Shown: piece by piece, positions 2,899-37,669 of the stretch | How the letters are laid out: every line of letters starts with the position of its first letter | How positions within the stretch are numbered: position 1 is the first letter of the stretch | Assembly: GCF_964204645.1 (NCBI RefSeq) | Contig: NC_134034.1 | Location: 5,988,914 to 6,052,913 of the forward strand | DNA: 64,000 nt | Source of the DNA: Tubulanus polymorphus | Taxonomy: Eukaryota; Animalia; Nemertea | Direction: 5' to 3' | Position numbers and translations under genes: made by a program | The notes under the pieces: generated by a model | The model's input: the letters and a program-made list of their open reading frames with translations, nothing else | The model's database searches: none | What the model was told of the DNA's origin: nothing

Positions 2899-2958
2899 AG
2901 TAATTGGAAGATGTGGGTTTCATACCAGAGGGCGAGAGGGCGAGACACCACTCATCAC
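2899..2958 (+). repeat. P1 left terminal inverted repeat
   Basis: Exact reverse complement of 19950-20009. Confidence 0.95.
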
Positions 2959-2984
2959 CACAAGTATTTTTTTTTTCCTAATAA

Positions 2985-5900
2985 ATGGGAGAGAATGAAC
3001 ACCAGCCAGAAAACAATAATGTTAATAAAAATCAATATTATTGCCAATATTGTAAAAAATACATCGATACATCTCATAAACACGACATGAAAAAACTGCA
3101 AATCATATAAAAATGTAATAGATTTTGAAACTCCAGAAAATTCCAATGAAAGAAAAGAAAGATTAAAAAATATGAATGTGGATGAAATAAAATGTGAAGT
3201 TTGTAATGATTTTATAGTAAAAAGGAATTATAATAGACATCTCGAATCACAAAAACACCACCAAAATTTGAGTAATAATGTTTTAGGAAAAGATTATTTT
3301 GACGATAAACCTCAAAAAGTAAAAAAACCAAATTCAAAAACTAAATCCATTTCAAAAAAACCTTACATGGAAAATGTTAGAAAGTTGATTCACTAGAAAT
3401 AAAAGATACAATTGAAATCTTAGAAACATTACGTAGTAAAATTGGTCCTGCAGCTATTATATTTAGATTTTTTAAAGGAACAACAATAGAAGATTATAGT
3501 AAATTTAATGAAATAATAGAAAAAATACTAGATTTGATAACAGATGTTGAATATCCAAAAATTAGTATCTCTGGGAAAGTAAGTTTTATAAAGTCAGAAG
3601 AAAAAATGAATTATAATATTCAAACACACTCTGAAGAAATAATTTCAAAAACACAAATAAAAGAGAAGTTAGAAAAAATATTTAATGAATTTAAACGTCA
3701 TATTGAAGAAAGATATTTTGAGGGTTCTGGCTTAACATTGAATGAAATTATATATTTAGATTTAAATGTTTATAATACAAAAAGAAATAAAACATCAAAA
3801 AGTAATAAAATGTTTAAAAATGCTTCAAACTTTACAACAGAAAAGGATATTAAAGCATCATCTTATATTAAATTACCATTTACAACAAAAGCAGTAATAA
3901 ATGTTCAAAATGAAGATAATAAATGTTTTCTATGGTCAATTATTAGTTGCTTACACCCAACAGAAGATATGACACATAATTTTAGAATAACAAATTACCG
4001 GAAATATGAAACATTATATAAAATTGATCAATATCCAGTAACTATAAAAATGATTCCTAAAATAGAAAAAGTTAATAATTTAAAAATAAATGTATTTGAA
4101 TTAATGCAATTACCAAAGACAAAAGGTGAAAATAGTAAAGATTATACATTGGAAGCTATATATTTAACAGAATATTATGATGATGAAAATGCTATAGATT
4201 TGTTATATTACAAAAAAGATGAAAATGAACATTATATGTGGTTAAAACAAATAGATTTATTCTTTTGAACAGAAAGTGATCATCATCGTAAAATTTATCT
4301 ATGTAGAAAATGTTTATCTAAATTTATGACTGAGAATACATTATTAAAACATAAAGAATTATGTGATAATAAAGATTTTTGTAAATTAATAATGCCAACA
4401 GAAAAAGATTATAAATTGAAATTTACTAATCATAAATTTAAGAACATTGTTCCATTTGTAATTTATGGGGATTTTGAATCGTTGAATAAAGAATTAACTG
4501 ATCAAGATAGAAAAGAAATATATAACAAAAAGCAATTATTAAAATCAATGGATAAAGGAAATGAATTAAATGAAGACACAACACAAGACCCACCAATTAC
4601 AAATACAATTAAAAAAGTTCATCAAAGAGCTGCTGCTAATGGAATTTATATGAAATCAAATTATCCTGAATTATATGAAAGTCAATATATTTCTTTTAGA
4701 GGTGAAAATGTAGTTAATAATTTTTGTGATAAAATGATTGAATTAGAAAGTGATTTTGCAAAATTATTAAACAAAAATAAAAGAATAGTTATGACAAAAG
4801 AAGATGAAATTGATTTTAATTATGCAACTCATTGTTGTTATTGTGAAAAACGTTTTTATTCATTTGATAAAAAAGTTAGAGATCATGATCATTTAAATTC
4901 AATATATCGTGGAGCTGCTCATGAAGATTGCAATTTACAAGCTAAGAAAGTTAATTTCGTACCAATATTATTTCATAATTTATCAGGCTATGATACCCAT
5001 CTATTTATAAAACAATTATCAAGGAAATTGGGTACAATAATCAAGAAATAGAAGAATATAATGCTATGAATGGTGTAAATGTAAGAAAATATGATTTTAA
5101 ACTATTAGCTAAAACATCTGAAAATTATATTTCATTTCAATTTGGTTGCATTAGATTTTTAGATTCTTATAGATTTCTAGCAAGTTCATTAGATAATTTA
5201 TCAAAAAGTTTAGTTGATAATGATTTTGTTATAACTCGATATTATTATCCAAATGAACAAGATTTTAAATTATTGAGATATAAAGGTGCAATTCCTTATT
5301 CATTTTATAAAACACACAATGATTTTAATGTAACAGAATTATTAAAATATCAATTTTATGATCAATTAAAAGAGGAGTATGTGAAAGACGAAGTGTTTAA
5401 TAGAACATTAAATATTTTGAACCATTTTAAGATGAAAAATCATGGTGAATTAGTTGATTTATATTTAAAATCAGATGTTATGATATTGGCTGACATATTT
5501 GAAAAATTTAGAGAAGTTAATTTAAATCATTTTAATGTTGATCCTTGTTATTGCTACTCTAGTCCTGGTTTAACCTGGCAATGTGGTTTAAAATATACAA
5601 ATGTAGAATTAGATTTATTAAAAGAACCAGATATGGTTTTATTATTTGAAAAATCAATTAGAGGTGGAATTAGTTGTGTTATGGGAGATAGATATTTTAA
5701 AGCAAATGATGAATATAAATTATTATATATTGACGCCAATAATTTATATGGTTGGGCAATGATGCAACCTCAACCATACAAAAATTTGATATTAACAGAA
5801 GTTGAAAATGATGATAAAACTAATTGGGAAAGCGCAATTATGAGTTTAGAAGATGAAGCACCAATTGGTTATTTCTTTGTAGTTGATTTAGAATATCCTG

Positions 5901-8045
5901 AAAATATAAAGTTTAAAACAAGAAACTTACCTTATTCCCCAGAAAATTTAACTGTAGATGATAGTTATTTTAGTGAATACCAGAAGAAAATAAAACCGAA
6001 AGATCATGTTTTTACAGAAAAATTAATACTTACTCAAAATAATAAATACAATTATATTGTTCATTATAGAATGTTAAAATTTTATCTAAAACAAGGAATG
6101 AAATTAAAGAAAGTACATAGATATATTGAATTTAATCAATCGAAGTGGTTAGAAAAATATATAGATTTCAATATTCAACAGAGAACCATATCAAAAACAG
6201 ATTTTGAAAAAGATTTCTTCAAATTAATGAATAATAGTTTTTATGGAAAAACATGTGAAAATATTAGAAATATAAATGATATTGAATTAGTAAATAATTC
6301 TGAAAGATTAAGACATTTACAATCAAGCCCTAGACATTTAGGAAATAAAAGATTTGAAGATTATTTAACAGCAGTTAAATTAAAAAGAACTTCAATGAAA
6401 TTTAATAAACCAATATTTATAGGTTCAACTGTTTTAGAAATATCAAAATTATTAATGTATGATTTTTATTATAATTTTTTACAACCACTTTTTGGGGAAA
6501 AGCATATTGAAATATTATATTTTGATTCTGTAACAGCTGACACCCCAATATTATTAAAATGTAATGATAAAATATTGATAAGAAGAATTTCAGAAATAAT
6601 TCCAAAACAAAATGAATGTTATATTTCATATGGTGAAAAAGAATTAATACAAATAAATGGTTTAATGGATGTTTGGACAAGAAATGGATGGAAAAAATTA
6701 AAGAATATTATTAGGCATAAAACAAATAAGAAAATCTATAGAGTTAGAACTAAATTAGGGTTCGTTGATGTTACAGAAGATCATAGTTTAATTAAACGAA
6801 ATGGCGATGAAATAAAACCAACTGATATAAAAATTGGAGATGAATTATTACATAAAAGATTTTTCCAAAGAATGAATCATATGTCATTTGATGAAATTAT
6901 TGATAATATTTATAATATAGAACCCGAAACATTAGAAGAAAAAGAATATTTTATCAAAGGATTTTTCATGGGTGATGGTTCAGCAGGTGTGGATAATTAT
7001 GTTTGGGGTAATAAATACTGTTGGTATTTATGCAATCAAGATTTAAAATTATTAGAAAGAATTAAGAAATTCTGTGAAGAAGTTTATTCACATAAAACAT
7101 TTAGAATCATGGATCATATGAAATCATTAGCAGTTTATAGAATACTTGTAAATAATCCTAAAGATTTTGCTATAAAATATAATGATGAATTCTATATTCA
7201 TGCAATAGTGAAAGTAATACTTCAACTAAAGAAAAGATAGTTCCAGATTATGTATAAATGCAAAAAATAATTTAAGAAAATGGTTCTTCATTGGATTCTA
7301 TGCAGCAGATCGTGCTAAAAAATTTACAAAGGATAAAAGATAACCTTTGCTCAAAAAGGAAAAGTTGCTATATCAGGATTGAATATATTATGCAATTCAT
7401 TAGGTTTTAATATGGATATTGGATTGATTAAATCTAAACCAAATTGCTTTAATCTAAGCCACACAGAAAAAGATTTAACTGAAGAAGTTAAAGATTTATT
7501 TGAAATATATAACCCATTAGATTATGTTTATGATTTATCAACTGAAGATGGTACATTTAACAGTGGATTTCCATTAATTTGCTTCAATACTGACGGTTAC
7601 ATACTAAAAATCAAGACAAATGATATAACAAAAGACTTAAAAACATTAAAACATTATTTTGATTTAAGCAATTATCCCAAAGATCATGAACTATTTAGCA
7701 ATGATAATAAAAAGATTCCTGGTAAGTTTAAAGATGAATTAGGGGGTGATGAAATGATTGAATTTGTTGGGATAAGAAGTAAAATGTATAGTTACAGAAC
7801 AAAAGATCATGAAGCTAAAAAGTTAAAAGGAATAACAAAACATGTGGTTGATAAACATATAGAATTTCAAGATTATATAAAGTGTTTATATAACTCAATT
7901 GTAATGAAACACAAAATGAATTGTTTAAGATCAGAAGATCACGAGATGTACATTAATGAAGTTGAAAAAAACTAGTTTGAATCCATTTGATGATAAAAGG
8001 CATATTTTAGATGATGGTATAAAAATATTACCTTATGGTTATTAA
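2985..8045 (+). pseudogene. polB: Protein-primed family B DNA polymerase (N-terminal zinc fingers, OTU-like region, EndoVII/HNH-like finger, exonuclease, polymerase), intein-containing, disrupted
   Basis: NEDNKCFLWSI, IYGDFES, RDHDHL..YRGAAH..CN, FHNLSGYD, FLDSYRF, YIDANNLYG, KLMNNSFYGK, YFD|intein|TDG; several stops and frameshifts. Confidence 0.95.
6527..7588 (+). mobile_element. Intein with LAGLIDADG homing endonuclease in PolB motif C (frameshifted)
   Basis: Block A SVTADTPILL, block B VTEDHSL, LAGLIDADG-like FIKGFFMGDG and WFFIGFYAAD, block F/G YVYDLSTEDGTF...ICFN|T; removal restores YFD-TD as in P2/P3. Confidence 0.95.
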
Positions 8046-9356
8046 AACATAAAATCAATATCATCATACTCGAAATTACTATTGGCTTCTTCATTTTCAT
8101 TTAATTGTTTAGGTTCTTCTTCCATTTCATTTTTCTTATTTAAATAAAGTTCTATCTTGTTCCACATTTCATCTCGCTCTCTTTGTTTCTTTTTGTTTGT
8201 TAATTCATCAAATGGAATTATAATATCTATGTTTAAATAATTTACAATCTTATTTAAAAAGAATTCATAATTTATTGAATCTGTTATTCTATTTTCCAAA
8301 TGATACATTAATATTTGTTTGAATATTTTTTTTATATTTTTCATATCTTCTTCTGTTAATTTAGGTTTTTCATAATAATCGTTAAATAATAAATATAAAT
8401 ACATTTTCTTTTCTTTTGTGTTAAATGTTGACGGAATAATTGTTTTTATAATATCTTTTTTAGTTATTTCACCATTTTTATTTTCTATTATTTTCATTTT
8501 TTCAAGCCATTGCATATATTCTGGTGTATGATCTTCTATAGAAAATGTTTTAAAAATTTCATCTAGATAATTTAATTTTGGATCTATGAGAAAATTTCTA
8601 GTTTTTTCTTCACTCCATAAATTCTTTTGCCATCCACATTCATTACAAAATAACACAGTACCTTCTTGCCTTAAGGTCGCGTAACTACATTGTGGACATT
8701 TTCGTTTATAATTTATTGGTAATAGATCTTCATTAAGCTCTTGGTATTTTCTTACGTTTTCTTTACGTTTTATTGTTCTATTATGTAGATTTGAATTACT
8801 TGTAATAATCAATTTACAATATTTACAATAATATATTTTTCTTGTTAATTAATTATATTGTTTTTCTAACTTTTCAACTGTTTCTTTATTATCTGGTAAC
8901 GTTTTCTCATATTTTATTTTTTCTAATAGATTATTTTTTCTTTCATTGAATTCAGTTTCAAATTTATTAGAAATTTTATCTATATGTGCTTTACGAAATT
9001 GATGATTCTCCCAATCTTCTATATTTTCAGGGCTATATTTTATTCGACAAGGCTCACAGAAATGATCTTTTATATTATCCTTATCATAGAATAAGAAAGG
9101 TCTTTTCCAAATAATTTCAGGTTCAACTTCAACAGAATTACTATTACTTTCATCACTATCAACATTAGCCGTTGCGCCATTAATTTTACACTTCTCTGAA
9201 TGTTTTTTAACATGATTTCTTGATAATTAATTTATTACATTTTGGGCAGTTTATTTTAGGGGGTTTATAATTTTCATCATGTTTTTTCATATGTCGAGCC
9301 ATATTACTTTTTCTTAGAAGTTTACCACAAATTTCGCATGCTATCTTCTCATCCAT
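8042..9356 (-). pseudogene. Zinc-finger / VLTF3-like (poxvirus A2-type late transcription factor) gene, 5' part frameshifted
   Basis: Start at 9356 MDEKIACEICGK..RHMKKH (C2H2); ORF 8042-8812 has CPQC..CNECG zinc ribbon, SINYEFFLNKIVNYL and KKQRERDEMWNKI resembling the VLTF3 C-terminus. Confidence 0.65.
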
Positions 9357-9423
9357 TTATTAAGGAAAAATTTTATCAAAATTAATTTTTAGTGATGAGC
9401 GGTAATTTTTTATGTTATAAATA

Positions 9424-10211
9424 ATGGTAGAATTAAAAGAATACAGAATATTTGTTGATTCTAGAAAACTTACAAATTATAAATCACATAATTTATTAGT
9501 TCAATTAGATAGAGAATTTAAGAATTATGTAGATTTAAAATTAGTAAATATAAGTTTATGTAACTCATTTTACAATATATCGGATAAAACTGACGAACAT
9601 AGAACCTTTTTTATTTATGAAAGACGTAATAGAAAAATAGCTTATCAACTTATGATTACACCAGGATTATATAATTTAGAAACATTAGCGAAAGAAATAA
9701 ATAGAAAACTCGGATTATGTTAGGTAGTGATTCTAAATTTAATATTAAATTCATAAAAAGTGAGAGCTCTAATTTTATTAGAGTAAAGTTTGATGATGAA
9801 AGTGTTGATGATTCATTGATGATAAGAAAACATGCTTACATGGTAAAAAAACCTTTTTCTAAACTGTTAGGAATTCTTTCAGATACTTTTATTTACGGAA
9901 ACACATATGGTATATCAAATATAATACCTTTTACACATTTTTATATTTATTGAAATTTAATTGATCCTACAAAAACATTCGAAGCAACTAAAGAAACAAT
10001 TTGTAATTCTAGTATATTAAATATTTTACCATTAAAAAATGTTAAACAATTTGGAACGCAAATAAATTATAATTTAGCTGAATGTGATTTTAAACCTTGT
10101 ATTCCACATTTCAATAATTTCAAATTAGAAATAAGAAATCATAATGGTTATTTAATTGATTTGAATAACTTTCCTGTAATTTATGAATTAATTATAAGAT
10201 GTAGAGAGTAA
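9424..10211 (+). pseudogene. Minor capsid (penton, single jelly-roll) protein, disrupted
   Basis: IFVDS, NSFYNIS, PGLYNLE.L...IN, LEIRNHNG.LIDLN motifs; intact homolog at 34053-34808. Confidence 0.75.
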
Positions 10212-10227
10212 TTTTTTCATTATATAA

Positions 10228-10587
10228 ATGAATATAACTGTTGGACCGAGTATATGTTTTGGGTTTGATTTTAAACATGAGAAAGAAATGAAATTTAACA
10301 TTAATGATGTAATTACACAAATCAAAAATATTGTATTTTCTAATGAAACATCATTTGAGTATGAAACAACAATAGATAAAGAAACTTTAAATGTAGAAAA
10401 GATTACTAATTTAATTAGAGAATCTTTAAGATTTTATGAATTAGATGAAGATTTTATCATAGATGATATTAAAAACATATTAACCGAAATATATGATAAT
10501 CATAAAAGTAGTAATGAAATAAATGTTGAATTATTCATCACTAAGTTGACTAAATATTTTGAAGATAGTAATTTTTTTGATAAATAA
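10228..10587 (+). CDS. Conserved acidic hypothetical Polinton protein
   Basis: 119-aa ORF, homologs at the same position in P2 and P3. Confidence 0.7.
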   Translation: MNITVGPSICFGFDFKHEKEMKFNINDVITQIKNIVFSNETSFEYETTIDKETLNVEKITNLIRESLRFYELDEDFIIDDIKNILTEIYDNHKSSNEINVELFITKLTKYFEDSNFFDK

Positions 10588-10809
10588 ATGAGTGATGATA
10601 AGTGGATAATAACTGGATTATATAATGGCTCATTATTATCAGTTGGAACTGTTGGTTATTCAATGGTATTAAAAAAAGTATTTAAAATGGGAAGTGTTAA
10701 TGTTGATAGATTTGATATAAATGATATCTTAAAATTAACATTAGCAGTTACTTTATCTAATTTAACTATTGATTATTTAGAAAAACAAAAATATATTCCT
10801 CCTATATAA
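10588..10809 (+). CDS. Small hydrophobic putative virion membrane protein
   Basis: 73 aa, two hydrophobic segments, conserved in P2/P3. Confidence 0.7.
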   Translation: MSDDKWIITGLYNGSLLSVGTVGYSMVLKKVFKMGSVNVDRFDINDILKLTLAVTLSNLTIDYLEKQKYIPPI

Positions 10810-10833
10810 ATGCGTAATTATTTTGCTAAATAA

Positions 10834-11256
10834 ATGGCTTCTGCAATTATAACTATTATAGGATCGGCAATTGTTAACGCTTTAGCATTTACTGGTGGTG
10901 GATATTTATTTAAACATATTGATAAAAATAGTTCATTAGGAGAACAAAGAAGACATAATTTAGCGTTAGAAAAATTAAATAAAGCAGAGGAAGAATATAG
11001 AGAAAAGAGACAAAACTATATGGATTATATTAACAAAGAATTATATGATCAGAATATTTCACACAGAGATTTTCAATCAGTTGATGATGCAATGAGTTTA
11101 TATAACGCGGTAACCAATAAAGAAAAATTACATCTATACAAACCTAAATTATCAGATTATTATACCCCAAGTAAAGAACAACAGAAATATGAAATAATTT
11201 GGATTTTAGGTGGAACAGTTATTGTTATATTTGTAGCATATAAATTTACTAATTAG
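10834..11256 (+). CDS. Putative membrane protein (N- and C-terminal hydrophobic helices, central coiled coil)
   Basis: MASAIITIIGSAIVNALAFTGG...RRHNLALEK...IIWILGGTVIVIFV; intact in all three elements. Confidence 0.8.
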   Translation: MASAIITIIGSAIVNALAFTGGGYLFKHIDKNSSLGEQRRHNLALEKLNKAEEEYREKRQNYMDYINKELYDQNISHRDFQSVDDAMSLYNAVTNKEKLHLYKPKLSDYYTPSKEQQKYEIIWILGGTVIVIFVAYKFTN

Positions 11257-11275
11257 TAATTTTTTTTCTAAATAA

Positions 11276-11710
11276 ATGGAAGATAAAGTTGATAATATTG
11301 ATATTATTCCTCATGATATGAATAAAACTAAATTAAAAATATATTTAGAAAAACAAATATTAGAATTTGAAAATGATTTAAAAGTTAAAAAGAAAAAATA
11401 TTTAAAAAGTAAAATTATATATTATTTGATTATTAGTGGTTCGGTTACAATAAGTTCTGTAATAACATTTCTAGCAATATTCAGTCCATTAACACCTTTA
11501 GCTATATCAATTGGTGTGTTAGGATTATCATCAAGTGTATTAACTGGTATAAGTTCAAAATTAAATATAAAAAGTAATAAAGAAAAAATTAAAACTAATA
11601 TAAAAGAAATTAATAAATTAAAGAATACACTAGATTATATAATAAGTTTAAATGGTCATATAACAGTTGAAGAACAAGATAAATTATTAAAAGAATTAAT
11701 AAATTATTAA
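11276..11710 (+). CDS. Two-TM membrane protein with coiled-coil flanks
   Basis: Hydrophobic hairpin IIYYLIISGSVTISSVITFLAIF...LAISIGVLGLSSSVL; homologs in P2/P3. Confidence 0.75.
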   Translation: MEDKVDNIDIIPHDMNKTKLKIYLEKQILEFENDLKVKKKKYLKSKIIYYLIISGSVTISSVITFLAIFSPLTPLAISIGVLGLSSSVLTGISSKLNIKSNKEKIKTNIKEINKLKNTLDYIISLNGHITVEEQDKLLKELINY

Positions 11711-11726
11711 TTTTTTAGTTATATAA

Positions 11727-13115
11727 ATGGCAGATAGTTTTCAAAAAGCTTTCCAATATAATAAATCAATTAAATATAATATTCCAGCAATAGATTTTAA
11801 TAAAGATATTTCATATAGAAATGAAGTTTTAAATTCATTAATTGATTTAGAAATTTATGTTACTGAAACTAATAATTTTAATGCAAAGATGGAAAATATA
11901 TTTCATGTATATTTAATTAATTTTAAAAAATTGAAAGATGAAAAACAATGGTTATTAAAATCTAATATGAAGTATTGGCAGAACCAATTAAATTTTGCTG
12001 TTTATTGTGCAATAACAGGTTGTGGAATTAGTTGTAATGATCATTTGAATAATTCTAAATATAAATTAATTCAAAGTTTATTTAGATTTTATACATACTT
12101 TCAAATCAGAATAATATTAAATGAATTAGAGTGCGCTTTACCAGGATCTAGATATTTTAAAGAATTAGATAATAATATTAATTTATCAAAGTTTTATAGA
12201 ATTTGTAATGAATTTAATATAGATATAAATAATTCTGATTTTAGAACAAAAATTGGAACAATAAGATCACTTCCTTGCCCTAAAAAGATTGCAGAATATT
12301 GTGCACTTCCCATACCATCTAATAGTTTTTATAATATCTATAGTAATAAATTAGGTTATGGTAAAATAGAAACTAAGGATTTAGAAACATTAAATTTCAA
12401 TAAATTACCGAAATTTTATGATAATTTAAAACAAGAAAACAATAATGGTTGGGTTTATTTCATTTAAGAAAATAATGAAGGTTTTACAAAATCAGGTATA
12501 CAAAGAATAAATCAATCTATTAGAACTTATTTGATATGTATTTTAGGTGCGCAAGTTGAAACAAGATCCCCAATGATTGGAAATTTAAATACATCATTCG
12601 ATACACAAAAACAATTTAAAGTATTATTTGAAGATTCAATTCATGATGATAAAAATAGATCGATTCCAGAAAACATTGTAAGCTATCAAAATTATTTAGA
12701 TAAATCACATATTAGATTAAATTATTGTATAGGTCCTAATCAATTAATTATTTCTAATGATTTAGTATTAAAGATGGGAAACATAATTGGTTAAAATAAT
12801 CTAATTAAAACTGCAACAATAAATAATTCATTTGGATTAAATGATATAAGTAAAAAGATTATTACTGCTCCAAAATTAATGGAAGGCGAAAAAAATAAAA
12901 AACATATTCAATCAACAGAAACTAAAACTAAGAATATTAAATTAAATAATGATTCTAAAATAAAAGATTACAATACATCAGAAGATATAAAAACTGATAA
13001 GATTCAACATGAAATAATTAAACTAAATGATGATAATAAATCCCATGAAAATACTAAATTAGCTTTAACTTGTATAGGAATTGTAATCGGAGGAATATTA
13101 TATTTTAAATTTTAA
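11727..13115 (+). pseudogene. Conserved Polinton protein of unknown function with C-terminal TM anchor, disrupted by stops
   Basis: WQNQLNFAVYCA.TGCGIS motif; three in-frame pieces; homologs at 36328-37653 and 60233-61675. Confidence 0.75.
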
Positions 13116-13131
13116 TTTTTTTATTATATAA

Positions 13132-14545
13132 ATGGATGTAGAAGGTGGAGAAGATATTGGAATGGATCCTTTTGATGAACCTGGTATAAGTGATGAACAA
13201 CCACCTGATTTTGATGAAACAAGTTTTAATGACGGTAATGAGCCAGAATATAGTAATAATTTGAATATGCCTGATTATATTAAAAATGCCGAATCACAAT
13301 TAAATCCTGAAAATTGAAACCCAGATTTAGTAAAACAAGATTTAGATAATTTAAACAAAATACCCAAATAAGAACGTATAATTGAAAATTCTAAACTTAA
13401 TATAAATGATGAAGACGTTGGACTTTTAGCATATCAATTAAAATTTTTAGATAATGGTAAATGTTATTATCGTTTGAAAGGTGATTATTATATTGATATC
13501 ACTTCTAAAAATAATAAAAAAATATTAGCGGAATCAACTTCGAAAAGTTTAAAACCAGATAAAATTAAAATAATAAGTAATAGTAATGAAATAACTGATG
13601 TTACACAAAAAGAAATAGATGATAATATAGACGCATTTAAACAAAGATATAATGAATTATTTGAAATAATCAAAAAGAAATCAGACACAGAAACAACTTC
13701 TGAACCGAATATAACTTCCAAAACTAGTAAACTTAAATCAAATAAAGTTCCAATTGAAAAACTTTTACCGAATGGATTACTTGATGCAACAGATCAAGAA
13801 TTAGAAGATTTAGATATATTTTCTGATAAAGCAATTAGAGAAATTATTAGTATAAGACATGCATCTGATAAAATTGCGCATGATAAAAGTATAAGAGATT
13901 TTAAAATTCGAACTTTAGAAAAAGACAGAACTGATAAAATTAAAGAAATAGAACAATTAAAATTAGATAGAGATAATAAAGTTATTGAAGAAATTGAATT
14001 TAAAAAAAGAAATGCATATTTAGAAAAAGAAATTGATGATATAGAATATAACATAGAATTACAAAAAGAATAATATTAGAATAATATTAATAGATTAAAA
14101 GTTATTTTTAAAGATTTGTTAATAAAACCAAATTCTGAAATATCATTAAAAGATAGAATAAAATCATTATTTAAATTAGAAGGAATAACAATTCTTTCAA
14201 TTCTAACAGCTGTAACTATGTTATTTACAACAATTGGTTTAGCAATATCAAATGCATTAAAATCTACGCCTACACCCAATAAACCGGATAAACCCCCGAA
14301 TGATAATAATTCTATACAAGATAAAGTTAAGGATGGTTTTAAAAAATTAGCAAAATATTTATGGGAACTATCTAAAAAATCTGCTGCAGCTTTACCAGGA
14401 GTAATTGCATCATTGTTGGTTTTATATTGAAATGCAGGAAACATTATTAACTTTGCTGCTGAACATATTATTTTATTTTTAATTACAGTTGTAAGTGCTA
14501 TTATTTTTGGGTTAGTGAATATGATATCAAAAGGATATCAAGAAA
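13132..14545 (+). pseudogene. Large acidic/coiled-coil protein with C-terminal hydrophobic helices, disrupted
   Basis: Colinear with intact 476-aa ORF 61638-63068; 3' end approximate. Confidence 0.75.
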
Positions 14546-14586
14546 AAAATAATAAAAAATGAATAATTAATTTTTTTGTTAAATAA

Positions 14587-15829
14587 ATGAGTGGGAGTTA
14601 TATAAGTCCTTCTAAGAATTCTAGAATATCTAATGCTATTAAAGCAGAAAGATCACCTCATATAATTACTCATAACCCTTCTAATATTAATCCTGATGAA
14701 ACTTTATATGTTAGAATCCCTAGATTAACACAAAATACTTTTTATGTTCCAAATAGTATTTATTTATCAGCCGATATAAATTGGTCATGATAATAATTAT
14801 GTTGTTGATAATGTTAGGAGATATTTGATTAAAAAATTAACTATAAAGATTGGTCCAGAAACAGTTTTCTCATTAGATGATTATAATTTATTTATGCATT
14901 ATAAAGATTTATGGTTAACTAAAGAAAATAGAAATAATATGATATTTCAGGGTATTCAATCGGAAAACCATAATAAATTAAGATCAGGAGCTAATGACGC
15001 AATAGTAACTCGTGCCGCAGATAATTTGATTAAAAAGATTTATGGAAGCAAATATAAAATTCCATTAGAGTTTGAATTGATAAATAATAATGCACCTTTA
15101 TATAAATATGTAATTCAAGAAGATATTATATTTGAGATAACATTTGCTCCTGTAAATGAAATTGTATTATCTAGCGTTGTTAAAGATATGGGTTATAAAT
15201 TATCGAATATATGTTTAGAATATGATACAGTAACTAATGAAAATATTGCTAGCACAATTCAAACTCAATACAATCAAGGATTTTCATTATTATATGATTA
15301 TATTGATAAATTTAAAACTGTAACTATTAATGCAAATGATGAAATAATTAATGAAAATATTAACTTCCCAAGAAGATCTATTAAAGGTATATTAATATTT
15401 TTTACCATTGCAACGTATTCTAATGGAGCAATAAAGGTAGATAATTATTATAATCCTGAAATAACAAAAGTTGAAATAACTATCGAAGGAATAGCAAATA
15501 AAATATTTTGTCAAGGAATGAGAATGATTGATCAGTGGCCAGAAATTAGAAAACATTTTATGAATGAAAAAGTAAAATCATTTGAAAATTGTAATATTAA
15601 TCAAATTGATTATTTTACCGGCAATAAATATGCATTATGGTTAGATTTTAGAACAACAGAGGATAATTCATTACATGGTTCTGGGAAAAAACTACAAAAT
15701 ACTAAAGATGGAATACAATTATTCATGACAAAGAAAAAAGGAAGCCTAAATTTCAAAATGCACACTTATATTATATCTGACGCGCAATTAAATATTGTAA
15801 ATTCACAATTAGATAGTATTCAATATTAG
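14587..15829 (+). pseudogene. Major capsid protein (double jelly-roll type), frameshifted near 14780-14820
   Basis: ~410 codons, beta-rich, position before integrase/ATPase, highly conserved in P0/P2/P3. Confidence 0.8.
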
Positions 15830-15859
15830 AAATATAAAGTTAAAATTAAGGATATATAA

Positions 15860-16987
15860 ATGGGTGGTAAAAAAACTCCTAATACTAAAGAACAATATTT
15901 AAGAAATTTATATTACAACCCTGAGAGTTCGGTTGCTTATTCTTCTACCAAAAATATATGGAGTAAAGTAAAACAAGATAAATTAGATAAGATAATCCCA
16001 CAAAATTTAGTTAAATATAAAGATATAAATGAATTTATGTTAGAACAACCAACATATACAACACATAAAAAAATTATTAGAAAATATAAAACTCGTAAAA
16101 CTATGGTAAGTTATATAGATCAACAGTGGCAAGGAGATTTAATTGATATGAAAAATGTTAAGAAAGATAATGATGATTATTGGTGGTTATTGAATATAAT
16201 TGATATTTTTAGTCGTTATGTATGGAGTTTCCCACTTTATAGAAAAGATGCTGTACAAACATCAAATGTTTTAAGAAAATTTCTTTCGGATGATAAACTA
16301 AAACCAGAAAAAATACAATTTGATGATGGAAAAGAATTTGATAATTCACTTGTTCATGAACTCTTAGATAATCATAATATTAAATATTTTTCAACAAAAT
16401 CGGATAAAAAAGCAGCAGTTGTTGAACGATTTAATAGAACATTAAGAACAAGTGTGTGGAAATATTTTACAGCAAATAATACTTTTAAATGGATTGATGT
16501 TTTACCAAAATTGATAGAAGGATATAATAATTCTTATCATTCTTCTATTGGAATGAAACCTATCGATGCTAGAAAACCTGAAAATGCTGAAATTGTTTGG
16601 AATAATTTATATGGAGCATTTCTTGTAGATGATTTTGGTGAACCTATATTTAAAGTTGGTCAAAATGTTAGAATTTCTAAGTATAAAAAGATATTTGACA
16701 AAGGATACGATCGAAATTTTACTAGGGAAATATATAAAATAAAAAAGGTAATAACAACAAAACCATATGTCTATAAATTAGAAGATTTAGATGGTGAAGA
16801 AGTTGATGGCTACTTTTACGAAGAAGAATTAAGTTTAACTACTGAAAATCTAGAACAAGAATATAAAATTGAAAAAGTATTAAAAACAAAAACTATTAAA
16901 AGAAAAAAATATTCTTTAGTAAAATGGGTTGGATGGCCAGATAAATTTAATGAATGGATATTATCAAGTAAAATTAAAAATATATAA
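15860..16987 (+). CDS. Retroviral-like (rve) DDE integrase with C-terminal chromodomain
   Basis: QWQGDLIDM, IDIFSRY, QFDDGKEF, VERFNRTL, YNNSYHSSIGMKP; chromo YKIEKVL...LVKWVGWPDKFNEWI; intact ORF. Confidence 0.95.
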   Translation: MGGKKTPNTKEQYLRNLYYNPESSVAYSSTKNIWSKVKQDKLDKIIPQNLVKYKDINEFMLEQPTYTTHKKIIRKYKTRKTMVSYIDQQWQGDLIDMKNVKKDNDDYWWLLNIIDIFSRYVWSFPLYRKDAVQTSNVLRKFLSDDKLKPEKIQFDDGKEFDNSLVHELLDNHNIKYFSTKSDKKAAVVERFNRTLRTSVWKYFTANNTFKWIDVLPKLIEGYNNSYHSSIGMKPIDARKPENAEIVWNNLYGAFLVDDFGEPIFKVGQNVRISKYKKIFDKGYDRNFTREIYKIKKVITTKPYVYKLEDLDGEEVDGYFYEEELSLTTENLEQEYKIEKVLKTKTIKRKKYSLVKWVGWPDKFNEWILSSKIKNI

Positions 16988-17596
16988 ATGAATAAAGAAT
17001 TATTTATATTTGAGCCTCATAATATGTTAATTTCTGGCGTAACAAATTGTGGAAAAACTTATTTTATATTAAATTTATTAGAAACTGTTTATGAAAACTA
17101 TTTTGATAATATAGTATTATTTTGTCCAACATATGAATTTAATCAAACTTATGATAGAAATATTACTAAAAATAATAAATTTATTATATTAGATCCTAAA
17201 ACAGTAAAAGAAAATTTAGATATTTGTATAAAAATAGCAATTGATATTTATAAAGGATCAAATACATTATTTATCATAGATGATTGCGCAAATTTACATG
17301 ATTCAAAAGTTAGAGAAAGTGAGTTATGCTATTTAGCTTTTTCTGGTAGACATTTTGGGATAACAACTTGGGTTTTAAATCAAAAATATAATTCAATTGT
17401 TAAAGACTTTAGGGAGAATATAAGATTTCTAGTTTTATTCTACAATCAAGATAGAAAATCGATGAAAAATGCACTTGAGGAAAATGATATTATTCCACAT
17501 GATTTACATAATGAATATATGGATAAGTTGAAAAATATTAAAAGATCAAAATTACTGTTTAGATTACAACACCCATTTAAATATGAATTTATTTAA
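16988..17596 (+). CDS. A32/FtsK-like genome packaging ATPase
   Basis: Walker A GVTNCGKT, Walker B FIIDD, GRH and Q..R.N motifs; intact. Confidence 0.92.
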   Translation: MNKELFIFEPHNMLISGVTNCGKTYFILNLLETVYENYFDNIVLFCPTYEFNQTYDRNITKNNKFIILDPKTVKENLDICIKIAIDIYKGSNTLFIIDDCANLHDSKVRESELCYLAFSGRHFGITTWVLNQKYNSIVKDFRENIRFLVLFYNQDRKSMKNALEENDIIPHDLHNEYMDKLKNIKRSKLLFRLQHPFKYEFI

Positions 17597-17599
17597 ATT

Positions 17600-17868
17600 C
17601 AACTAGCTTGTTAATCTAGTTGAATTCTAGTTACATTCTAGTTGAATTCTAGTTATTGGTATTGGAACAAAAATCAACTAGATTTAACAATATTTTAACT
17701 AGCTTGTTAATCTAGTTTAATTCTAGTTACATTCTAGTTGAATTCTAGTTGTTAGTAGTTGGAACAAAAATCAACTAGATTTAACAAGAAATAAACAAAA
17801 ACAACAATATTTCAACTAGCTTGTTAATCTAGTTGAATTCTAGTTACATTCTAGTTGAATTCTAGTTG
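17600..17868. repeat. Three ~55-bp units of CTAG/GAATTC-rich non-coding repeat
   Basis: aactagcttgttaatctagttgaattctagttacattctagttgaattctagtt at ~17602, ~17697, ~17814. Confidence 0.85.
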
Positions 17869-17900
17869 CAACAACACAATTAATTTTTTTTGTTATATAA

Positions 17901-18488
17901 ATGGGAGGTGAAAAGAAAATAAAATCTAAAAATGGTGATGTTCCAATTGAAAAAACTTTAGATGATTTAGGAATAACAGAAAACAAATTAATTCCAGATG
18001 ATGGTGCTTTAAATAATGTTACAACAAATAATAATTATGAATATTATCTTTATTGTAAACATCAATTAGAAATATTAATAGCATCTGGAAAATGTAAAAA
18101 TTTTGTCGGTAAAAATTTAACTTATAATGAACTAGATTCAATGAAATCAGATGAAATTATTAGATTATTTAAGATTTATGAAGCCGCGAGAACAGCTAGA
18201 ATTAATGACGCGATATCAGAAAATGTAGTAAAAGGTTATAGTAAATTATGTAATTATACACTACCAATTGATGATGAAAATAGATTATATTCCGATTTAA
18301 AAAATGACTATTTAGTTATGACTGAATTAAATAAATGGATTGGATATTCATCATTTCAATTAGGCGGATTTATGACATTATTATCAACTGGGGTTATAAC
18401 ATTTTCAAATATTGAAAGTAAAAATATTTCTATAATAAATGAGCGAGGTGAAAGAAGTGAAGGAATTAACTGTGAAGAAAAAACCTAG
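17901..18488 (+). CDS. Conserved hypothetical Polinton protein (gene X)
   Basis: 195 aa; homolog at 41853-42455 in P2. Confidence 0.8.
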   Translation: MGGEKKIKSKNGDVPIEKTLDDLGITENKLIPDDGALNNVTTNNNYEYYLYCKHQLEILIASGKCKNFVGKNLTYNELDSMKSDEIIRLFKIYEAARTARINDAISENVVKGYSKLCNYTLPIDDENRLYSDLKNDYLVMTELNKWIGYSSFQLGGFMTLLSTGVITFSNIESKNISIINERGERSEGINCEEKT

Positions 18489-18773
18489 ATCACAGAAACA
18501 AATTGAATGGTCTCGGCAATTAGGAATTAAATCACAAGAATATAAAAAGCTGTAAAAGAAAAAATAAGTAATAAAAATGTTAATAAAAATAGTGAAAATA
18601 TTGTTATTTCTACTCCTTCTAATGATAGAATATTTGATAAATGTCTATATTTTACAGTTGGATTTGTAATTGTATTCATTTTGATTGGGTGTAATTGGTA
18701 TAAGAAATCAAATAAAATTCATGATATTAATAATTCTGAAACAACTGCTATCAAAAATGAAAATAATTCTTAA
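18439..18773 (+). pseudogene. Small basic protein with TM segment (gene Y), frameshifted
   Basis: TAAATG start; KKPRSQKQIEWSRQLG matches KKARSEKQIKWARELG in P2 (41860, minus). Confidence 0.6.
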
Positions 18774-18996
18774 ATTCCAAAATTGACAATAAAAAAATGG
18801 ATTAATATTTTAGAAAAAAAGGCAAAAAAAATAATTTTTTTTAATCAATTGAATATTAATTGAATATCTCACTACTTTTGTCTATCACTGTGTGGGTGCC
18901 GTTTATGGCACCATCTACGCGGAGCAATTAAATTGTCCAGATAAGTCATTTCGGATTCTAGATATTCATTATTTTTATTAATTTATTTTTTTAAAT

Positions 18997-19326
18997 TTAA
19001 TCAACAATTTCTAAATCATGATGTCCATCTTCATTTTTTCCATGATATAATATTATTTTAAATCCTTCTAAATCTTTTAATTCCTCTGTCCTCAATGAAA
19101 CCCATTTATCAGGTAAAAATACTTTAAATTCTCGCGATGTACTAACCTTACAGTAGCTTAAATTAGCTGATACTTTCTCTCCATATTTAGTTTTTATCTT
19201 TTCTAATTTCAATATTTTATGTTCAATTTCTTTTGTAACATCAACTAACTTTTTTATTTCAAATTGTTTTTTTGCTGGTTTTATTCTGTTATTTATTGTT
19301 GCTAAGAATGCTTTTCTATCTCCCAT
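18997..19326 (-). CDS. Small protein, possibly OB-fold ssDNA-binding
   Basis: KKL..., TKYGEKV, FKVFLPDK pattern shared with 57602-57943; fold is inference. Confidence 0.55.
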   Translation of the reverse strand: MGDRKAFLATINNRIKPAKKQFEIKKLVDVTKEIEHKILKLEKIKTKYGEKVSANLSYCKVSTSREFKVFLPDKWVSLRTEELKDLEGFKIILYHGKNEDGHHDLEIVD

Positions 19327-19348
19327 TTATTAGGAAAAAGAATTACTC

Positions 19349-19949
19349 GTGGTGATGAGCGGGGATTACTTCCCCTTGTATATAACAAACACCCTATTAA
19401 CCGTTGTCACCCAAGCCTCACAGCATCTATTTATCCGGGTACAGTTAACACACGCGCAGCTGTTGTTACGCGCACTCACTGTTTATGTGTGTCACAATTT
19501 TACTGCGTAATATTTCTAAAATTTCAATTGTATCTTTTATTTCTAGTGAATCAATATAATTTCTAACATTTTCCATGTAAGGTTTATTTGATTTATCAAT
19601 GTATTTTTTACAATATGGACAATGATATTGATTTTCATTAACATCAATTTGTTCTGTCTTATTCTCTTCCATTTATACGGAAACAAAATTATTTGTGGTG
19701 ATGAGTGGGGATTACTTCCCCTTGTATATAACAAGCACGCTATTAACCGTTCTCACCAAAGCCTCACAGCATCTATTTATCTGGGTACAGTTGACACGCA
19801 ATCACTGTACTACAGTAATAGCACACGCGTTAATAACCGTTCTCAGTAGAGACTCACTGTATCGGTCTATCCACGCGCAGCTGTTGTTACGCGCACTCAC
19901 TGTATATGTGTGTCACAGAGCAATCGTCCGTTCTCACTAGAGCCTAGCT
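19349..19949. repeat. Subterminal direct repeats enclosing a deleted inverted copy of the polB 5' end (ORF 19466-19672)
   Basis: ~19349-19497 repeats ~19695-19917; the ORF matches the P1 PolB N-terminus. Confidence 0.8.
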
Positions 19950-20009
19950 GTGATGAGTGGTGTCTCGCCCTCTCGCCCTCTGGTATGAAACCCACATCTT
20001 CCAATTACT
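19950..20009 (-). repeat. P1 right terminal inverted repeat
   Basis: Reverse complement of 2899-2958, followed by TSD TTTATT. Confidence 0.95.
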
Positions 20010-29134: not shown

Positions 29135-29613
29135 AGTAATAGGCGTAATGGGCTTTCAAGCCAAAGGTCGAACGGTCGAGTGAGTAAAAAATGAAAAACA
29201 TGAAAATAATTACAATTTCTACTTGAATTACTCGCGAAACTCATAAAAATGAAAAATAAATTCTCACACGCTCTAATTTATTTTTCATTTTTATGAGTTT
29301 CACTCCTAATTCAAGTAGAAATTGTAATTATTTTCATGTTTTTCATTTTTTACTCACTCGCCCCTTCAACCTTTAACCTGAAAGCCTATTATCCCTATTA
29401 CTCTTAAAATAATCATATACGTGAATAACATTCAAATTGACAGATTATTCAATATCAAAGTGTAAGCTCTTATAGAATAAATATAAAAGTATATATTTAC
29501 AACATTATTTCAATATTCATATTTGTATGAGTTAGATTTTAAACATTAAAAGTGTTAGTAAAGTGTGATTGAAATAATACATGATATAAATCATTGAACT
29601 TCTAAAATCAATT
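29135..29613 (+). repeat. P2 left TIR containing a 268-bp imperfect palindrome (29135-29402)
   Basis: Inverted match to ~44772-45227; internal arms fold back around a loop at ~29262-29275. Confidence 0.93.
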
Positions 29614-29636
29614 TTAATAAAAAATTTAGTATTAAA

Positions 29637-32600
29637 ATGGAAGCAAATAAGTACTACTGTCCAACATGTAATATCAATATAGATAAATCCCAAAAAGCAA
29701 GGCACAATAAAACTAAAACACATTTAGAGAATAAATTGAAACTAGAATATAAAGATGATATATTAGAATCTAAATTAGATGAATTAAAGAATGAAAAAGA
29801 AATATATAAATGTGATACATGTAATCAATCATTCAGTGATAAAAGATATTATAATAAACATTTAAAATCTAAAAGTCATATTAGAAATAAGAATAATGAT
29901 ATTTTAGGTGAAGATTATTTTGATTAAGATAATGATAAGAAACAGAAGACAATTAAAAGCATAAAAAGTAAATTAAACAATAAAAGACCATACATGGAAG
30001 ATGTAAGAAATTATATTAATTCATTAGATAATAAAAAAGATATAGAGATAACCGAAGCATTTAAAAGTGATATTGGCCCAGCAGCTATCGAGTTTAAATT
30101 TCATGAAGGAAAAACATTAGAAGAAAATAAAAAACATTTAGAAAATATGAAAAATATTATAAAAATAATTACTGATGTTGATTACCCTAAAATTAGTATA
30201 TCTTCTAAAGTTAAATTCATAAAATCTGAAGATAAACCAATATATAATATAAATTCTCATTCACAACATATTATATCTAAACAACATATAGATGATGAAT
30301 TAGATAAATGTTATAATGAAGTAAAAACTAAAATAGAAGAGAAATATTTTGAAGGATCTGGTTTAATATTTGATGAAATAATATTTATGACTTTACATGT
30401 GTATAACACAAAATATAATAAGTTAACTAAATCAAAACAAATAGATGAAAATAATGTATCATATTATAAAGAACAAGATATTGAAGCATCGAGTTATATT
30501 AAACTACCATTTAAAACTAATGCTGTAATAAATGTACAAAATGAAGATGATAAATGTTTTCTATGGGCTATAACAAGTTGTTTACACCCAGTTGAAGATT
30601 ATAAACAACATAGTTTTAGATTAACTCATCATAAACCATTTGAAAATAGTTATAAGATAGATAAGTATCCTGTTAGAATTAAAAACGTCCCAAAGATAGA
30701 AAGAGATAATAATTTAAGAATAAATGTATTTGATTTAATCAAATTACCAAATACAAAAGGTAACAATATAAAACATTATACATTAGAACCTTTATATCTA
30801 TCAAAAGATTATGATTCAAACGATGTTATAGATATATCATATTATGAGAATCATTATATGTGGATTAAACAAATAGATTTATTTTTTAAATCAGAAAATG
30901 ATCACCATAAAATATATCTATGTAGAAAATGTTTACATAAATTCAGTAATGAAAGTACATTATTAAATCATAAACAATTATGTGAAAATCATGATAATTG
31001 TAAATTAGTTTTACCAAATGAAAAGGATAAAATATTAGAATTCAAAAAATATGATTACAAAAATAAAGTTCCATTTGTAATATATGGAGATTTTGAATCA
31101 TTAAATAAAGAATTAACTGATCAAGATAGAAAAGAAATATATTATAAAAGATAGAAATTAAATTCTAATGAAAATGATTTTTCAGATGAACCACCAAAAA
31201 CAAATACAATTAAAAAGATTCATCAATCAGCTGCAGCTTTCGGGTTATATATTAAATCTGATTATCCAGAACTAATTAAAAGTGAATATTATCATTATAG
31301 AAATGAAAATGTTATCAATCATTTTTGTGACTTATTAATTGAATATGAAATAAGATTTAGTAAATTATTGAATACAAATATAGAAATTATAATGACAGAA
31401 GAAGATAAAGAAAAATTTGCGTTTGCAGATAAATGTTATTATTGTGAAAAGATATTTAATTATAAAGATAAAAAGTAAGAGACCATGATCATTTGAATGG
31501 AAAGTTTAGAGGCGCTGCACATAAGAATTGTAACTTACAAGCTAAGAAAATTAATTTTGTACCAGTTATATTTCATAATCTATCAGGATATGATGCACAT
31601 TTATTCATCAAACAGTTATGCCATAAAATAGAAGAAATTAATAATGAAATAGAAAGATTAAATTCAAATAGATCAAAAGATAAAATACCAACTTATAAAT
31701 TTAGAATGTTAGCTAAAACATCTGAGAATTATATATCATTCCAATTTAGTTGCCTAAGATTTATAGATTCATATAGATTTTTAAATAGTTCATTAGATAA
31801 CTTATCAAAATCATTAGTTGATGATGAATTAAAAATATTAAAACAACACTATGCAAATAATGATGATTTGCAATTAATGAGATATAAAGGAGCAATTCCA
31901 TATTCATTTTATAAATCACATAATGATTTTAATATAACTGAATCAAAAAATGAATATGTTAAAGATGAAGTATATAATAGAACATTGAATATTTGGAATC
32001 ATTTCAAAATAACAAATCATGGACAATTAGTAGATTTATATTTAAAATCAGATGTATTATTATTATCGGATATATTCGAAAGGTTTAGAGATGTAAACCT
32101 AAAATATTTTAACATTGATCCTTGTCATTGTTATTCATCACCAGGTTTAACATGGGATTGTGGATTAAAATTTACAGATATAAAAATGGATTTGTTAACA
32201 AATATAGATCAATTATCATTATTTGAAAAATCTATAAGAGGAGGAGTTTCAGGTGTATTAGGTGATAGATATTTCAATGTAAATGATAAACCTGGTTATT
32301 ATAAAAGTTATTATATATAGATGCAAATAATTTGTATGGTTGGGTAATGATGGAACCACAACCTTATCGAGTATTTGAAATAAGTGAAGTTTTACAGAAT
32401 GAAAATAATGATAAATTTGATTGGAAGAAAAGAATTCTAGATATTGCAGATGATTCAGATACTGGTTACTTCTTTGTTGTAGATTTAGAATATCCTGAAC
32501 ATATTAAATTTAAATCTAGAAATCTAGCATACTGTCCCGAACATAAAACTGTAACTCATGAAGAATTATCAAATTACCAAAAAAGAATTAAACCCGAAAA

Positions 32601-33653
32601 TCATATTCATACAGAAAAGTTAATGGTAACTCAAGAAGATAAATATAATTATGTAGTACATTACAGAATGTTAAAGTTTTATTTGAGTCAAGGAATGATT
32701 CTAAAAAAAGTACATAGATATATTTCATTTAGTCAATCTAAGTGGTTAGAAAAATATATAGATTTTAACACCAAACAGAGAAATGAAGCTAAAACCGATT
32801 TTAAGAAAGATTTCTTCAAGTTAATGAACAATGCATTCTATGGTAACACTTGTGAAAATATTAGAAATAGAAATGATATTGAGTTAGTTAGTAATGGTAA
32901 AAGAATTAGACATTTACAAACATATCCTAAGTTCATTGGTAACAGAATATTTGATGAAAATTTAGCCGCAGTTAAGATGAGAAGAACATCAATGAAATTT
33001 AATAAACCAATCTATGTTGGCGCTTCAGTTTTAGAATTATCAAAATTACTAATGTATGAATTCTATTATAATGTATTACAACCACTTTTTCGAGAAAAAC
33101 ATATAGAAATATTATATTTTGATACTGACAGTTACATATTAAAGATAAAAACTGATAACATAACTGATGATTTAAAAACATTAAAACATCATTTTGATTT
33201 CAGTAATTATCCTAAAGATCATGAATTGTTTAGCAATGATAATAAAAAAGTTCCCGGTAAATTCAAAGATGAATTAGGTGGTGAAGAAATGATTGAATTC
33301 ATCGGTATTAGATCTAAAATGTCTTCATATAAAACTAGAGAACATGAAGCTAAAAAGTTAAAAGGAATAACCAAAAGTGTAGTAGAAAAGAATATTCATT
33401 TCAAAGATTACATCAATTGTATATTCAATGAAGAAGTTAGAAAACATAAGATGAGATGTTTAAGATCTGAAGATCATGAAATGTTTATTGAAGAAATTGA
33501 AAAATAAGTCTAAACCCATTTGATGATAAAAGATATATTTTAGATGATGGAATTCATACAGTTGCTTATGGTTGTAATTCAGATGAATATTTAAAATTTA
33601 AAAGAGAAGAAACAAAAGAGAACGAGATAATGAAAAGAATTCTAACGTGTTAA
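29637..33653 (+). pseudogene. polB: Protein-primed PolB, intein-free, disrupted
   Basis: Same motifs as P1; ILYFDTDSY uninterrupted at ~33110-33135; several stops and frameshifts. Confidence 0.95.
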
Positions 33654-33682
33654 TCAAATTTTAATAAAAATATGTTATTAAA

Positions 33683-34035
33683 ATGGAGAGTAAACAAGCG
33701 GAAGTGAGAACAACAAATCATTTCTAGATAGAATAAAAGATACTTCAAATATCAAATCAGTAGATTAAAAATTCAAAAAGTTAACAGAATTAACAATTCA
33801 TAAGAAATATTTAATTACAAATATTGAAACAATTACTAACAAATATGGAGATAAATTAGTTATACACTTAGAATATGAAGGATTAAAAGGAAATACATAT
33901 AAATTCAGAACATATTTACCAGATAGATTTCATAGATTATCAAGTGAAGATTTAGAAGAATTATGTTCTGGAGATTTCTATTTCGTAAACAAAGGTTAGA
34001 ATGAAAAAGGGCACCATGAAATAGATTTCGAATAA
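33683..34035 (+). pseudogene. Small putative ssDNA-binding protein, with stops
   Basis: Near-identical to 57602-57955. Confidence 0.6.
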
Positions 34036-34052
34036 GAAAATATGTAAAATAA

Positions 34053-34808: not shown

Positions 34809-34825
34809 TTTTTTCACTATATAAA

Positions 34826-36311: not shown

Positions 36312-36327
36312 TTTTTTAGTTATATAA

Positions 36328-37653: not shown

Positions 37654-37669
37654 TTTTTTTATTATGTAA

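Follow-up and report, generated by a model that had tools for sequence, protein, structure and literature searches.

A Polinton lineage of the nemertean Tubulanus polymorphus with a polymerase intein, a VLTF3-like gene and TAAATG gene starts

The window analysed here is a stretch of 64,000 nucleotides from the nemertean Tubulanus polymorphus (contig NC_134034.1, forward-strand positions 5,988,914 to 6,052,913). It contains three sibling Polintons, P1, P2 and P3, at 22-25% GC, in flanks at 33-53% GC that hold a LINE reverse transcriptase and BEL-type fragments (DUF5641). P1, the subject of this study, has the anatomy of a Polinton, with a protein-primed PolB (pPolB; PF03175, 55.4 bits, E 6.6e-15), an rve integrase, a packaging ATPase, and terminal inverted repeats (TIRs) of AG..CT type bordered by a 6-bp target-site duplication (TSD), TTTATT. 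Most P1 genes are fragmented, and P1, P2 and P3 are all broken copies. In a pPolB tree P1 falls into one clade with the elements at loci L005-L009 (support 100), and L002 lies outside; L008 is the closest relative of P1, at 82% PolB identity. The P1 family is a genuine Polinton lineage in which traits come together in a new combination. The features are collected in Table 1.

Table 1. Features of P1 and its siblings (positions count from the first letter of the window)
Feature	Position	Strand	Basis or remark
P1 Polinton, full-length but decayed, 17.1 kb, 24% GC	2899..20009	+	TIRs, TTTATT TSD on both sides, GC
P1 left TIR, 60 bp, begins AGTAAT, without hairpin	2899..2958		60 bases identical with right end
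T6-N7-TAAATG start, example	2969..2987	+	also at 10212, 10572, 11260, 11711, 13116, 14571, 17885
pPolB gene, at least 6 frame pieces, with endonuclease-VII-like insert and intein	2985..8040	+	PF03175
Intein, 354 codons, Ser1...Asn/Thr junction, block B TEDH, LAGLIDADG	6527..7588	+	TIGR01445
Zinc-finger and VLTF3-like gene (VLTF3 part 8042-8848), three frame pieces	8042..9356	-	PF04947, Atlas, Foldseek
Penton (minor capsid) candidate, in pieces	9424..10211	+	weak DUF5901, E 3e-4
Five conserved virion-module ORFs (119, 73, 140, 144, ~460 aa), function unassigned	10228..13115	+	each after a T-rich TAAATG start
Coiled-coil ORF with membrane tail, in pieces	13132..14540	+	ORF list
Major capsid protein candidate, two pieces	14587..15829	+	position
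rve integrase with chromodomain, open frame	15860..16987	+	PF00665, 40.8 bits
A32-type packaging ATPase, open frame	16988..17596	+	PF04665, 48.4 bits
Conserved 195-aa ORF	17901..18488	+	61-65% identity to P2 and L005 copies
P1 right TIR	19950..20009		identity with left TIR
P2 sibling, TSD GTAGGC, TIRs ~500 bp, 5' integrase remnant	29135..45227	+	intein site empty; without VLTF3 or ATPase
P2 palindrome at the left end (268 nt; fold of single-stranded DNA -99.8 kcal/mol)	29135..29402		same isomer at right end, 44961-45227 (267 nt)
P2 free-standing HNH/endonuclease-VII gene, after A-rich TAAATG start	44094..44750	-	phrog_1035
P3 sibling, runs past window end, intein site empty	53301..64000	+	152-nt terminal palindrome
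P3 left terminal palindrome, 152 nt	53301-53452		fold

Gene starts, VLTF3-like gene and polymerase intein

The genes of P1 share a sharp start motif. With starts picked from open reading frames (ORFs) and sibling homology, TAAATG is found at 14/15 P1 starts and at 38 of the 656 other ATGs (Fisher p 7e-16). Its extended form, T6-N7-TAAATG, which a preliminary reading of the sequence alone (the sequence-only reading) had proposed as the P1 gene start, occurs at 8/15 starts and at none of the other 656 ATGs; across the window it has 18 matches, where 0.31 would be expected (0/100 shuffles). A mechanical count (first ATG, at least 60 aa) gives TAAATG at 12/29 ORFs in P1 and 0/28 in the flanks. Position -10 is a T at all 15 P1 starts and at both L008 starts, that is, at 17 of 17 in the VLTF3-bearing elements. 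In P2 and P3, 18 of the 20 valid starts are TAAATG, with 13 T and 7 A at -10; one mis-indexed row was dropped from this count, and two P2 starts with a mutated motif or ATG were omitted. The A is found at PolB, SSB-like, HNH and penton genes and one unassigned ORF in P2-type copies, and at 7/9 listed starts in L005-L007.

Among other pPolB loci, TAAATG stands at 11/14 starts in L005-L009 and at 7/7 in L002. The 23 control pPolB loci L137-L159, two of which repeat another locus's contig or PolB, have it at 13/232; L010, L013 and L003 have it at 1/13, 0/3 and 0/1. At the PolB start of L003 (L003:115), a T-run is followed by TAGATG, a near-variant of the motif. Scanning viral contigs for the promoter pattern gave single scattered matches among the matches listed. 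For vaccinia, late promoters are given as TAAAT(G) with a conserved T at -10, and intermediate ones as TAAA without that T and with an A-rich upstream region (PMC11980589); the T core lies 5-7 bp ahead of TAAAT, and late promoters of African swine fever virus (ASFV) are also bipartite (PMC5294985). The P1-family motif fits the vaccinia late consensus, which may differ from that of any helper of these elements.

The VLTF3-like gene claimed by the sequence-only reading is also present. The whole 268-aa VLTF3 frame falls below the PF04947 cut-off and was missed; its C-terminal 157 aa score 27.4 bits against a cut-off of 25, consistent with the zinc ribbon and helical C-terminal domain of VLTF3. 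In the Atlas, the ORF matches VLTF3 clusters at 0.96 (27/30 matches). A structural model (pLDDT 65) retrieved 12 structures with Foldseek (E up to 0.001), an entomopoxvirus factor ranking first and cowpox A2 giving the best TM-score. In L008 the gene is a single open 697-aa zinc-finger fusion, 45-48% identical to that of P1. No VLTF3 relatives were found by word-index search or by the viral-contig scan. The premise that VLTF3 needs a virus-encoded RNA polymerase proved wrong: mriyaviruses, which are probably nuclear, keep VLTF3 without one (PMC11253617), and VLTF3 occurs in stony-coral polintoviruses (PMC11131425).

The P1 polymerase carries an intein, inserted exactly and in frame into PolB motif C (FD|TD). 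It scores 32.6 bits against TIGR01445 (cut-off 24.5) and matches PF14528 weakly. Of its LAGLIDADG motifs, the first is in frame and the second in a shifted stretch, the P1 frame being broken between the two. The penultimate residue is Phe, not His; since non-His residues are common among the matches (KN, SN; FN in P0162), this is not disqualifying. The same PolB site is empty in P2, P3 and L006-L009.

The first 237 residues of the intein have 1,889 matches among 1.84 billion representatives and share ~35-45% identity with motif-C inteins of giant viruses. The best 150 of these 1,889 matches comprise 125 in YGD context, one in a pPolB and 24 in other sites or fragments; by Pfam, 28 intein-bearing matches are 23 DNA-primed PolBs and five fragments without a match. 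The top named Foldseek rows are PolBs of a phycodnavirus, pandoraviruses, megaviruses and a pithovirus, which bears out the proposal of a giant-virus-type intein. A FastTree phylogeny of P1 and 143 of the best 150 matches (seven had no extractable intein) places P1 with P0165, itself in a pPolB (75%), and five decayed fragments, at 99 SH-like support. This clade has a stem of 0.55 and is nested among YGD-site inteins, with no resolved sister group; the tree has no outgroup and its rows were picked by similarity to the P1 intein, so that the direction of transfer rests on parsimony. The five decayed fragments (P0064, P0090, P0130, P0153, P0200) lie on contigs of 75-624 kb; the junction of one is MD|C, resembling the motif C of Polintons. 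Their sequences suggest that the intein is also present in Polintons of another genome. A scan of viral contigs for the intein left one of six candidates, whose match, to RNase H in a prophage, is due to chance.

The intein was probably acquired once, by homing during a shared infection, when it passed from the PolB of a giant virus to the corresponding motif C of a Polinton, and it would then have moved among Polintons. Its composition is ameliorated (GC3 0.14 vs 0.12), so the transfer may be old. The intein is a record of past co-infection, a trace of physical contact between Polinton and giant virus, and not of present dependence; the finding holds even if helper dependence fails. DNA reads from a second sample, filed under the same species name (1,934 million letters), cover the intein at depths of 189-262, the adjoining PolB at 242-285 and VLTF3 at 237-284; these depths lack a single-copy control and are not convertible to copy number. 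At the left end of P1, 324 reads exit into mixed flanks (agreement 0.36). The mixed flanks and the depth over the intein together indicate that the subfamily with the intein has inserted at many sites. Among the 15 of 190 joints listed, none skipped the intein, and several P1 frame breaks are not common to most reads.

Terminal hairpins, siblings and remaining genes

Terminal hairpins had been proposed for P2 and P3. P2 indeed has one at each end, P3 has one at its left end, and L007 also begins with one; the palindromes measure 152-268 nt and run from AGTAAT to ATTACT. The P1 left TIR, in contrast, folds at only -5.2 kcal/mol. Of the outer 26 pairs, 25, 25 and 24 are paired in P2, P3 and L007, respectively. 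Fifteen columns change on both sides of the stem, and 12 stay paired in all three elements; that is, the stems covary and the structure is kept. The hairpins share a GA-rich box with a mismatched partner, the 5' arm of which is also found in the P1 TIR. A search for flip/flop isomers in P2 found none, and a terminal motif scan found 0. Displaced single strands of these ends would fold back and prime, or re-form an origin. The ends may also resemble the poxvirus concatemer-resolution sequence.

The siblings had also been credited with an HNH gene in giant-virus style. P2 does carry such a gene (phrog_1035, E 1.5e-13; 55-56% identity to L005/L006), and tblastn identified P2, L005, L006 and L007 as carriers; it was not found in P3, which the window cuts. 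The attribution of style is not supported, as PHROGs and Atlas place the protein closest to tailed-phage endonuclease VII types (61 homologs collected). The endonuclease-VII-like insert of PolB matches PF02945 weakly in P1 and over cut-off in the P3 copy. Within P2, at window positions 40690-42455, the integrase/195-aa module is inverted and deleted and the ATPase is missing; also encoded there is an ORF of 169 aa that contains a zinc finger and 6.5 copies of a 24-bp repeat.

The identity of the virion genes is less certain. The ORF at 9424..10211 is a likely penton protein, and that at 13132..14540 may be GasderminX-like. The two-piece ORF upstream of the integrase is likely the major capsid protein, as judged from its position; PF16903 matches weakly, in the P2 copy only (E 0.01), and a search of the PDB gave no match. 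Scanning viral contigs for the capsid yielded 0/8 candidates. A search for an adenain protease in the P1 family, by tblastn with those of L001 and L002 as queries (best E 3.3) and by a six-frame motif scan, found none, and Pfam and PHROGs recognised no pox RNA-polymerase subunit among the function-unassigned ORFs.

An older sibling, running on the opposite strand, surrounds P1 (2064-2898 and 20010-20334, -); beyond it, a further capsid fragment (20335-20936, +) terminates at an (AT)86 run. CTAG-rich repeats and weak palindromes precede the 195-aa gene in three elements (17575-17870, 42480-42720 and L005:5677-5765), a possible cis site; in P1 these repeats are 96-bp units with TCTAGTTGAAT 11-mers. 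GC-richer subterminal repeats measure 133 bp in P1 (19319-19797) and 115 bp in P2 (42867-43225), and the P1 right end repeats pieces of its own left zinc-finger region. The element at L002:684-4984 is a distant Polinton (38% GC, 35% PolB identity) with a protease-integrase fusion and a 184-nt palindrome ahead of PolB. Given its TAAATG starts, it is possibly a second, independent lineage wired in the pox manner.

Transcription of the P1 family

How Polintons are transcribed, and whether those of animals are autonomous or parasites, is a question that a sharp, lineage-restricted start motif makes addressable. The sequence-only reading had tentatively placed transcription in the factory of a co-infecting Nucleocytoviricota virus. 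Of this proposal, the start motif stands, being lineage-wide and pox-like; the VLTF3 premise does not, the HNH gene adds little, and the intein speaks for past co-infection only. In the form that we consider, P1-family genes would rely for transcription on the post-replicative apparatus of a large cytoplasmic DNA virus infecting the same cell, most likely of pox or asfar type, and the elements would be virophage-like parasites. On sequence evidence we give this an even chance. It gains support because the motif matches the vaccinia late description, is lineage-wide, is absent as a pattern from the 23 other pPolB loci, and is found even at the polymerase gene. The intermediate and late factors of a helper would be the only ones reachable by a parasite outside the helper's virion core, a limit that fits the use of TAAATG by PolB as well. 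Starts with T(-10) would then be of the late class and those with A(-10) in P2-type copies (PolB, SSB-like, HNH, penton) intermediate, and the P1 subfamily, in which every start has T(-10), would attract late transcription with a VLTF3 of its own.

A fuller scenario would make the family, which integrates with 6-bp duplications and whose genes start at pox-like signals, a germline Polinton virophage of a pox/asfar-type virus, with an A-core/T-core TAAATG programme, its own late factor in one subfamily and a giant-virus homing intein that it brought in many copies into an animal genome and handed on between Polinton lineages; we rate this tentatively, at somewhat short of even. Polinton-like viruses (PLVs) in entomopoxvirus occlusion bodies provide a precedent (PMC11296320), as does promoter sharing in PgVV, Sputnik and mavirus (10.1101/2022.07.28.501842). 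If true, dependence on a helper predicts a large DNA virus in the host. That the family also confers heritable antiviral protection is unlikely, as this would need both helper dependence and intact, inducible copies.

Several observations weigh against transcription by a pox/asfar-type helper. VLTF3 is kept by the polymerase-less, probably nuclear mriyaviruses mentioned above, and the fold matches of the pLDDT-65 model to pandora-, mega- and marseillevirus proteins lie within about tenfold in E-value of those to pox. The intein neighbours are Megaviricetes, with no pox- or asfarvirus among 50 Foldseek rows, so that intein and promoters name different helpers. The A-rich core lies at -10 to -16, compared with -15 to -19 in vaccinia; P2, which has no VLTF3, retains the promoters; and germline integration requires a nuclear step. 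Coding strands show no depletion of AATAAA (O/E 0.89-1.01, 17-24 sites per PolB; flank LINE frames 0.36), which favours such a helper but is weak, GC-dependent evidence: L152, at 22% GC and without TAAATG, has 5.8 AATAAA per kb, and depletion is likewise not seen in L001 and L003. The coding strands of the L005-L007 PolB and the P1 ORFs use TTTTTNT less than expected (O/E 0.34-0.57), unlike L008 (0.95), a similarly weak and GC-dependent signal that could reflect avoidance of a terminator or of the promoter core.

The family could instead be autonomous and nuclear, its VLTF3-like protein, acting in cis in P1-type and in trans for P2-type elements, steering host RNA polymerase II to a T-rich/TAAAT initiator particular to the lineage. 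This is how polymerase-less Nucleocytoviricota are thought to work, and mriyaviruses are again the example (PMC11253617). The T at -10 at all 17 starts of the VLTF3-bearing P1 and L008 agrees with it as well. We nonetheless consider it rather unlikely, since the VLTF3 gene itself carries the same start and L002, a separate PolB lineage, has TAAATG throughout. Moreover, translation would start poorly with a T at -3, unless this is replaced by an A leader, and vaccinia needs the further late factors A1 and G8, which were not found here. Finally, the motif, which extends into the ATG and in many cases takes up an entire 16-nt spacer (the exact motif in 7/26), leaves no space for a TATA-to-start distance of 25-30 nt (PMC5294985).

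It is improbable that the motif is a relic, that is, that a once helper-dependent lineage now spreads as a transposon only, or is dying, with its promoters persisting by descent. The broken state of all three copies, the ameliorated intein and the lack of an identified protease would fit such a history. However, T6 and TAAATG are fixed while the 7-nt spacers differ among paralogous starts, relatives whose PolB is 69-82% identical have preserved both the motif and their open frames, the P1 TIRs are identical, and the reads show many insertion sites. More improbable still is that TAAATG serves translation, by stop-start coupling on polycistronic RNA, with T6 as the terminator of the upstream gene. 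T6 does often follow directly on an upstream stop, and that stop supplies the TAA at 2/26 starts; the other 24 are uncoupled, and the 7-nt spacing is unchanged where no gene ends upstream, at 2969 (the first gene after the TIR) and at 17885 (304 nt past the last stop).

Comparison with known systems

Membership in Lavidaviridae or Maveriviricetes is not assigned, no protease having been found. The study of Beta adintoviruses reportedly describes an OTU domain on PolB as well as GasderminX and Cupiennin genes. Polintons/Mavericks of this type (PMC8502044; pPolB2 with HNH insert, 10.1101/2023.08.22.554363) share with P1 the pPolB with its endonuclease-VII/HNH-like insert, the rve-chromo integrase, the A32 ATPase, a likely capsid module, AG..CT ends and the 6-bp TSD. 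The P1 family differs in the adenain protease, which was not found, in the motif-C intein and TAAATG starts, and in the long terminal hairpins of P2, P3 and L007. P1 is therefore adintovirus-like, and we do not file it as a Beta adintovirus, for which the protease is a criterion. VLTF3 homologs in Polintons are shared with coral polintoviruses (PMC11131425) and MELD viruses (PMC8502044); that of P1 is fused to zinc fingers and paired with a matching start motif, and the excerpts of those papers contain no promoter analysis. Palindromes inside TIRs, next to the TSD, are also known from virophages and PLVs of Halocafeteria, where they are proposed as replication primers (10.64898/2026.07.28.741278). 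Those elements (52-nt example) have mostly non-pPolB replicases, in contrast to the 152-268-nt palindromes with covarying stems and conserved mismatches in the pPolB elements described here.

Mavirus has a pPolB and an rve integrase. Together with Sputnik and PgVV/Gezel-14T (10.1101/2022.07.28.501842), it provides the model of a helper-borrowed promoter motif, as proposed here; however, those systems have protist hosts and mimivirus-type helpers and motifs, and their dependence is shown by culture. Closer in host are the entomopoxvirus-associated AHEV_PLV1/2 and CBEV_PLV1 (PMC11296320), Mavpol-related animal elements that, like P1, are proposed as poxvirus parasites. They are ~12-kb contigs from occlusion bodies with other replication and integration modules, and the words promoter, transcription, motif, intein and VLTF are absent from its main text; the helper case made here rests on promoters rather than on a physical link.

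No description of a Polinton polymerase with a motif-C intein turned up in the literature search, and TAAATG is absent from the papers it listed; it covered main texts, and supplements such as the adintovirus maps of PMC8502044 could hold an intein or VLTF3. Endonuclease inserts in pPolB have been suggested to stem from intein invasions, with no splicing intein described in the excerpt (PMC11071308), and the word intein is absent from that of 10.1101/2023.08.22.554363. The motif-C (YGD|TDS) PolB inteins of Phycodnaviridae, Iridoviridae and Mimiviridae (PMC5784728, Table 1) have the same site, Ser/Asn|Thr ends and LAGLIDADG motifs, whereas the P1 intein sits in the protein-primed PolB of an integrated element, forms its own clade and has a penultimate Phe. 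In that 2018 survey, the eukaryotic inteins are those of fungi, some protists, plastids and large viruses, and its table has no animal row; a multi-copy intein in the polymerase of an integrated Polinton would extend this range.

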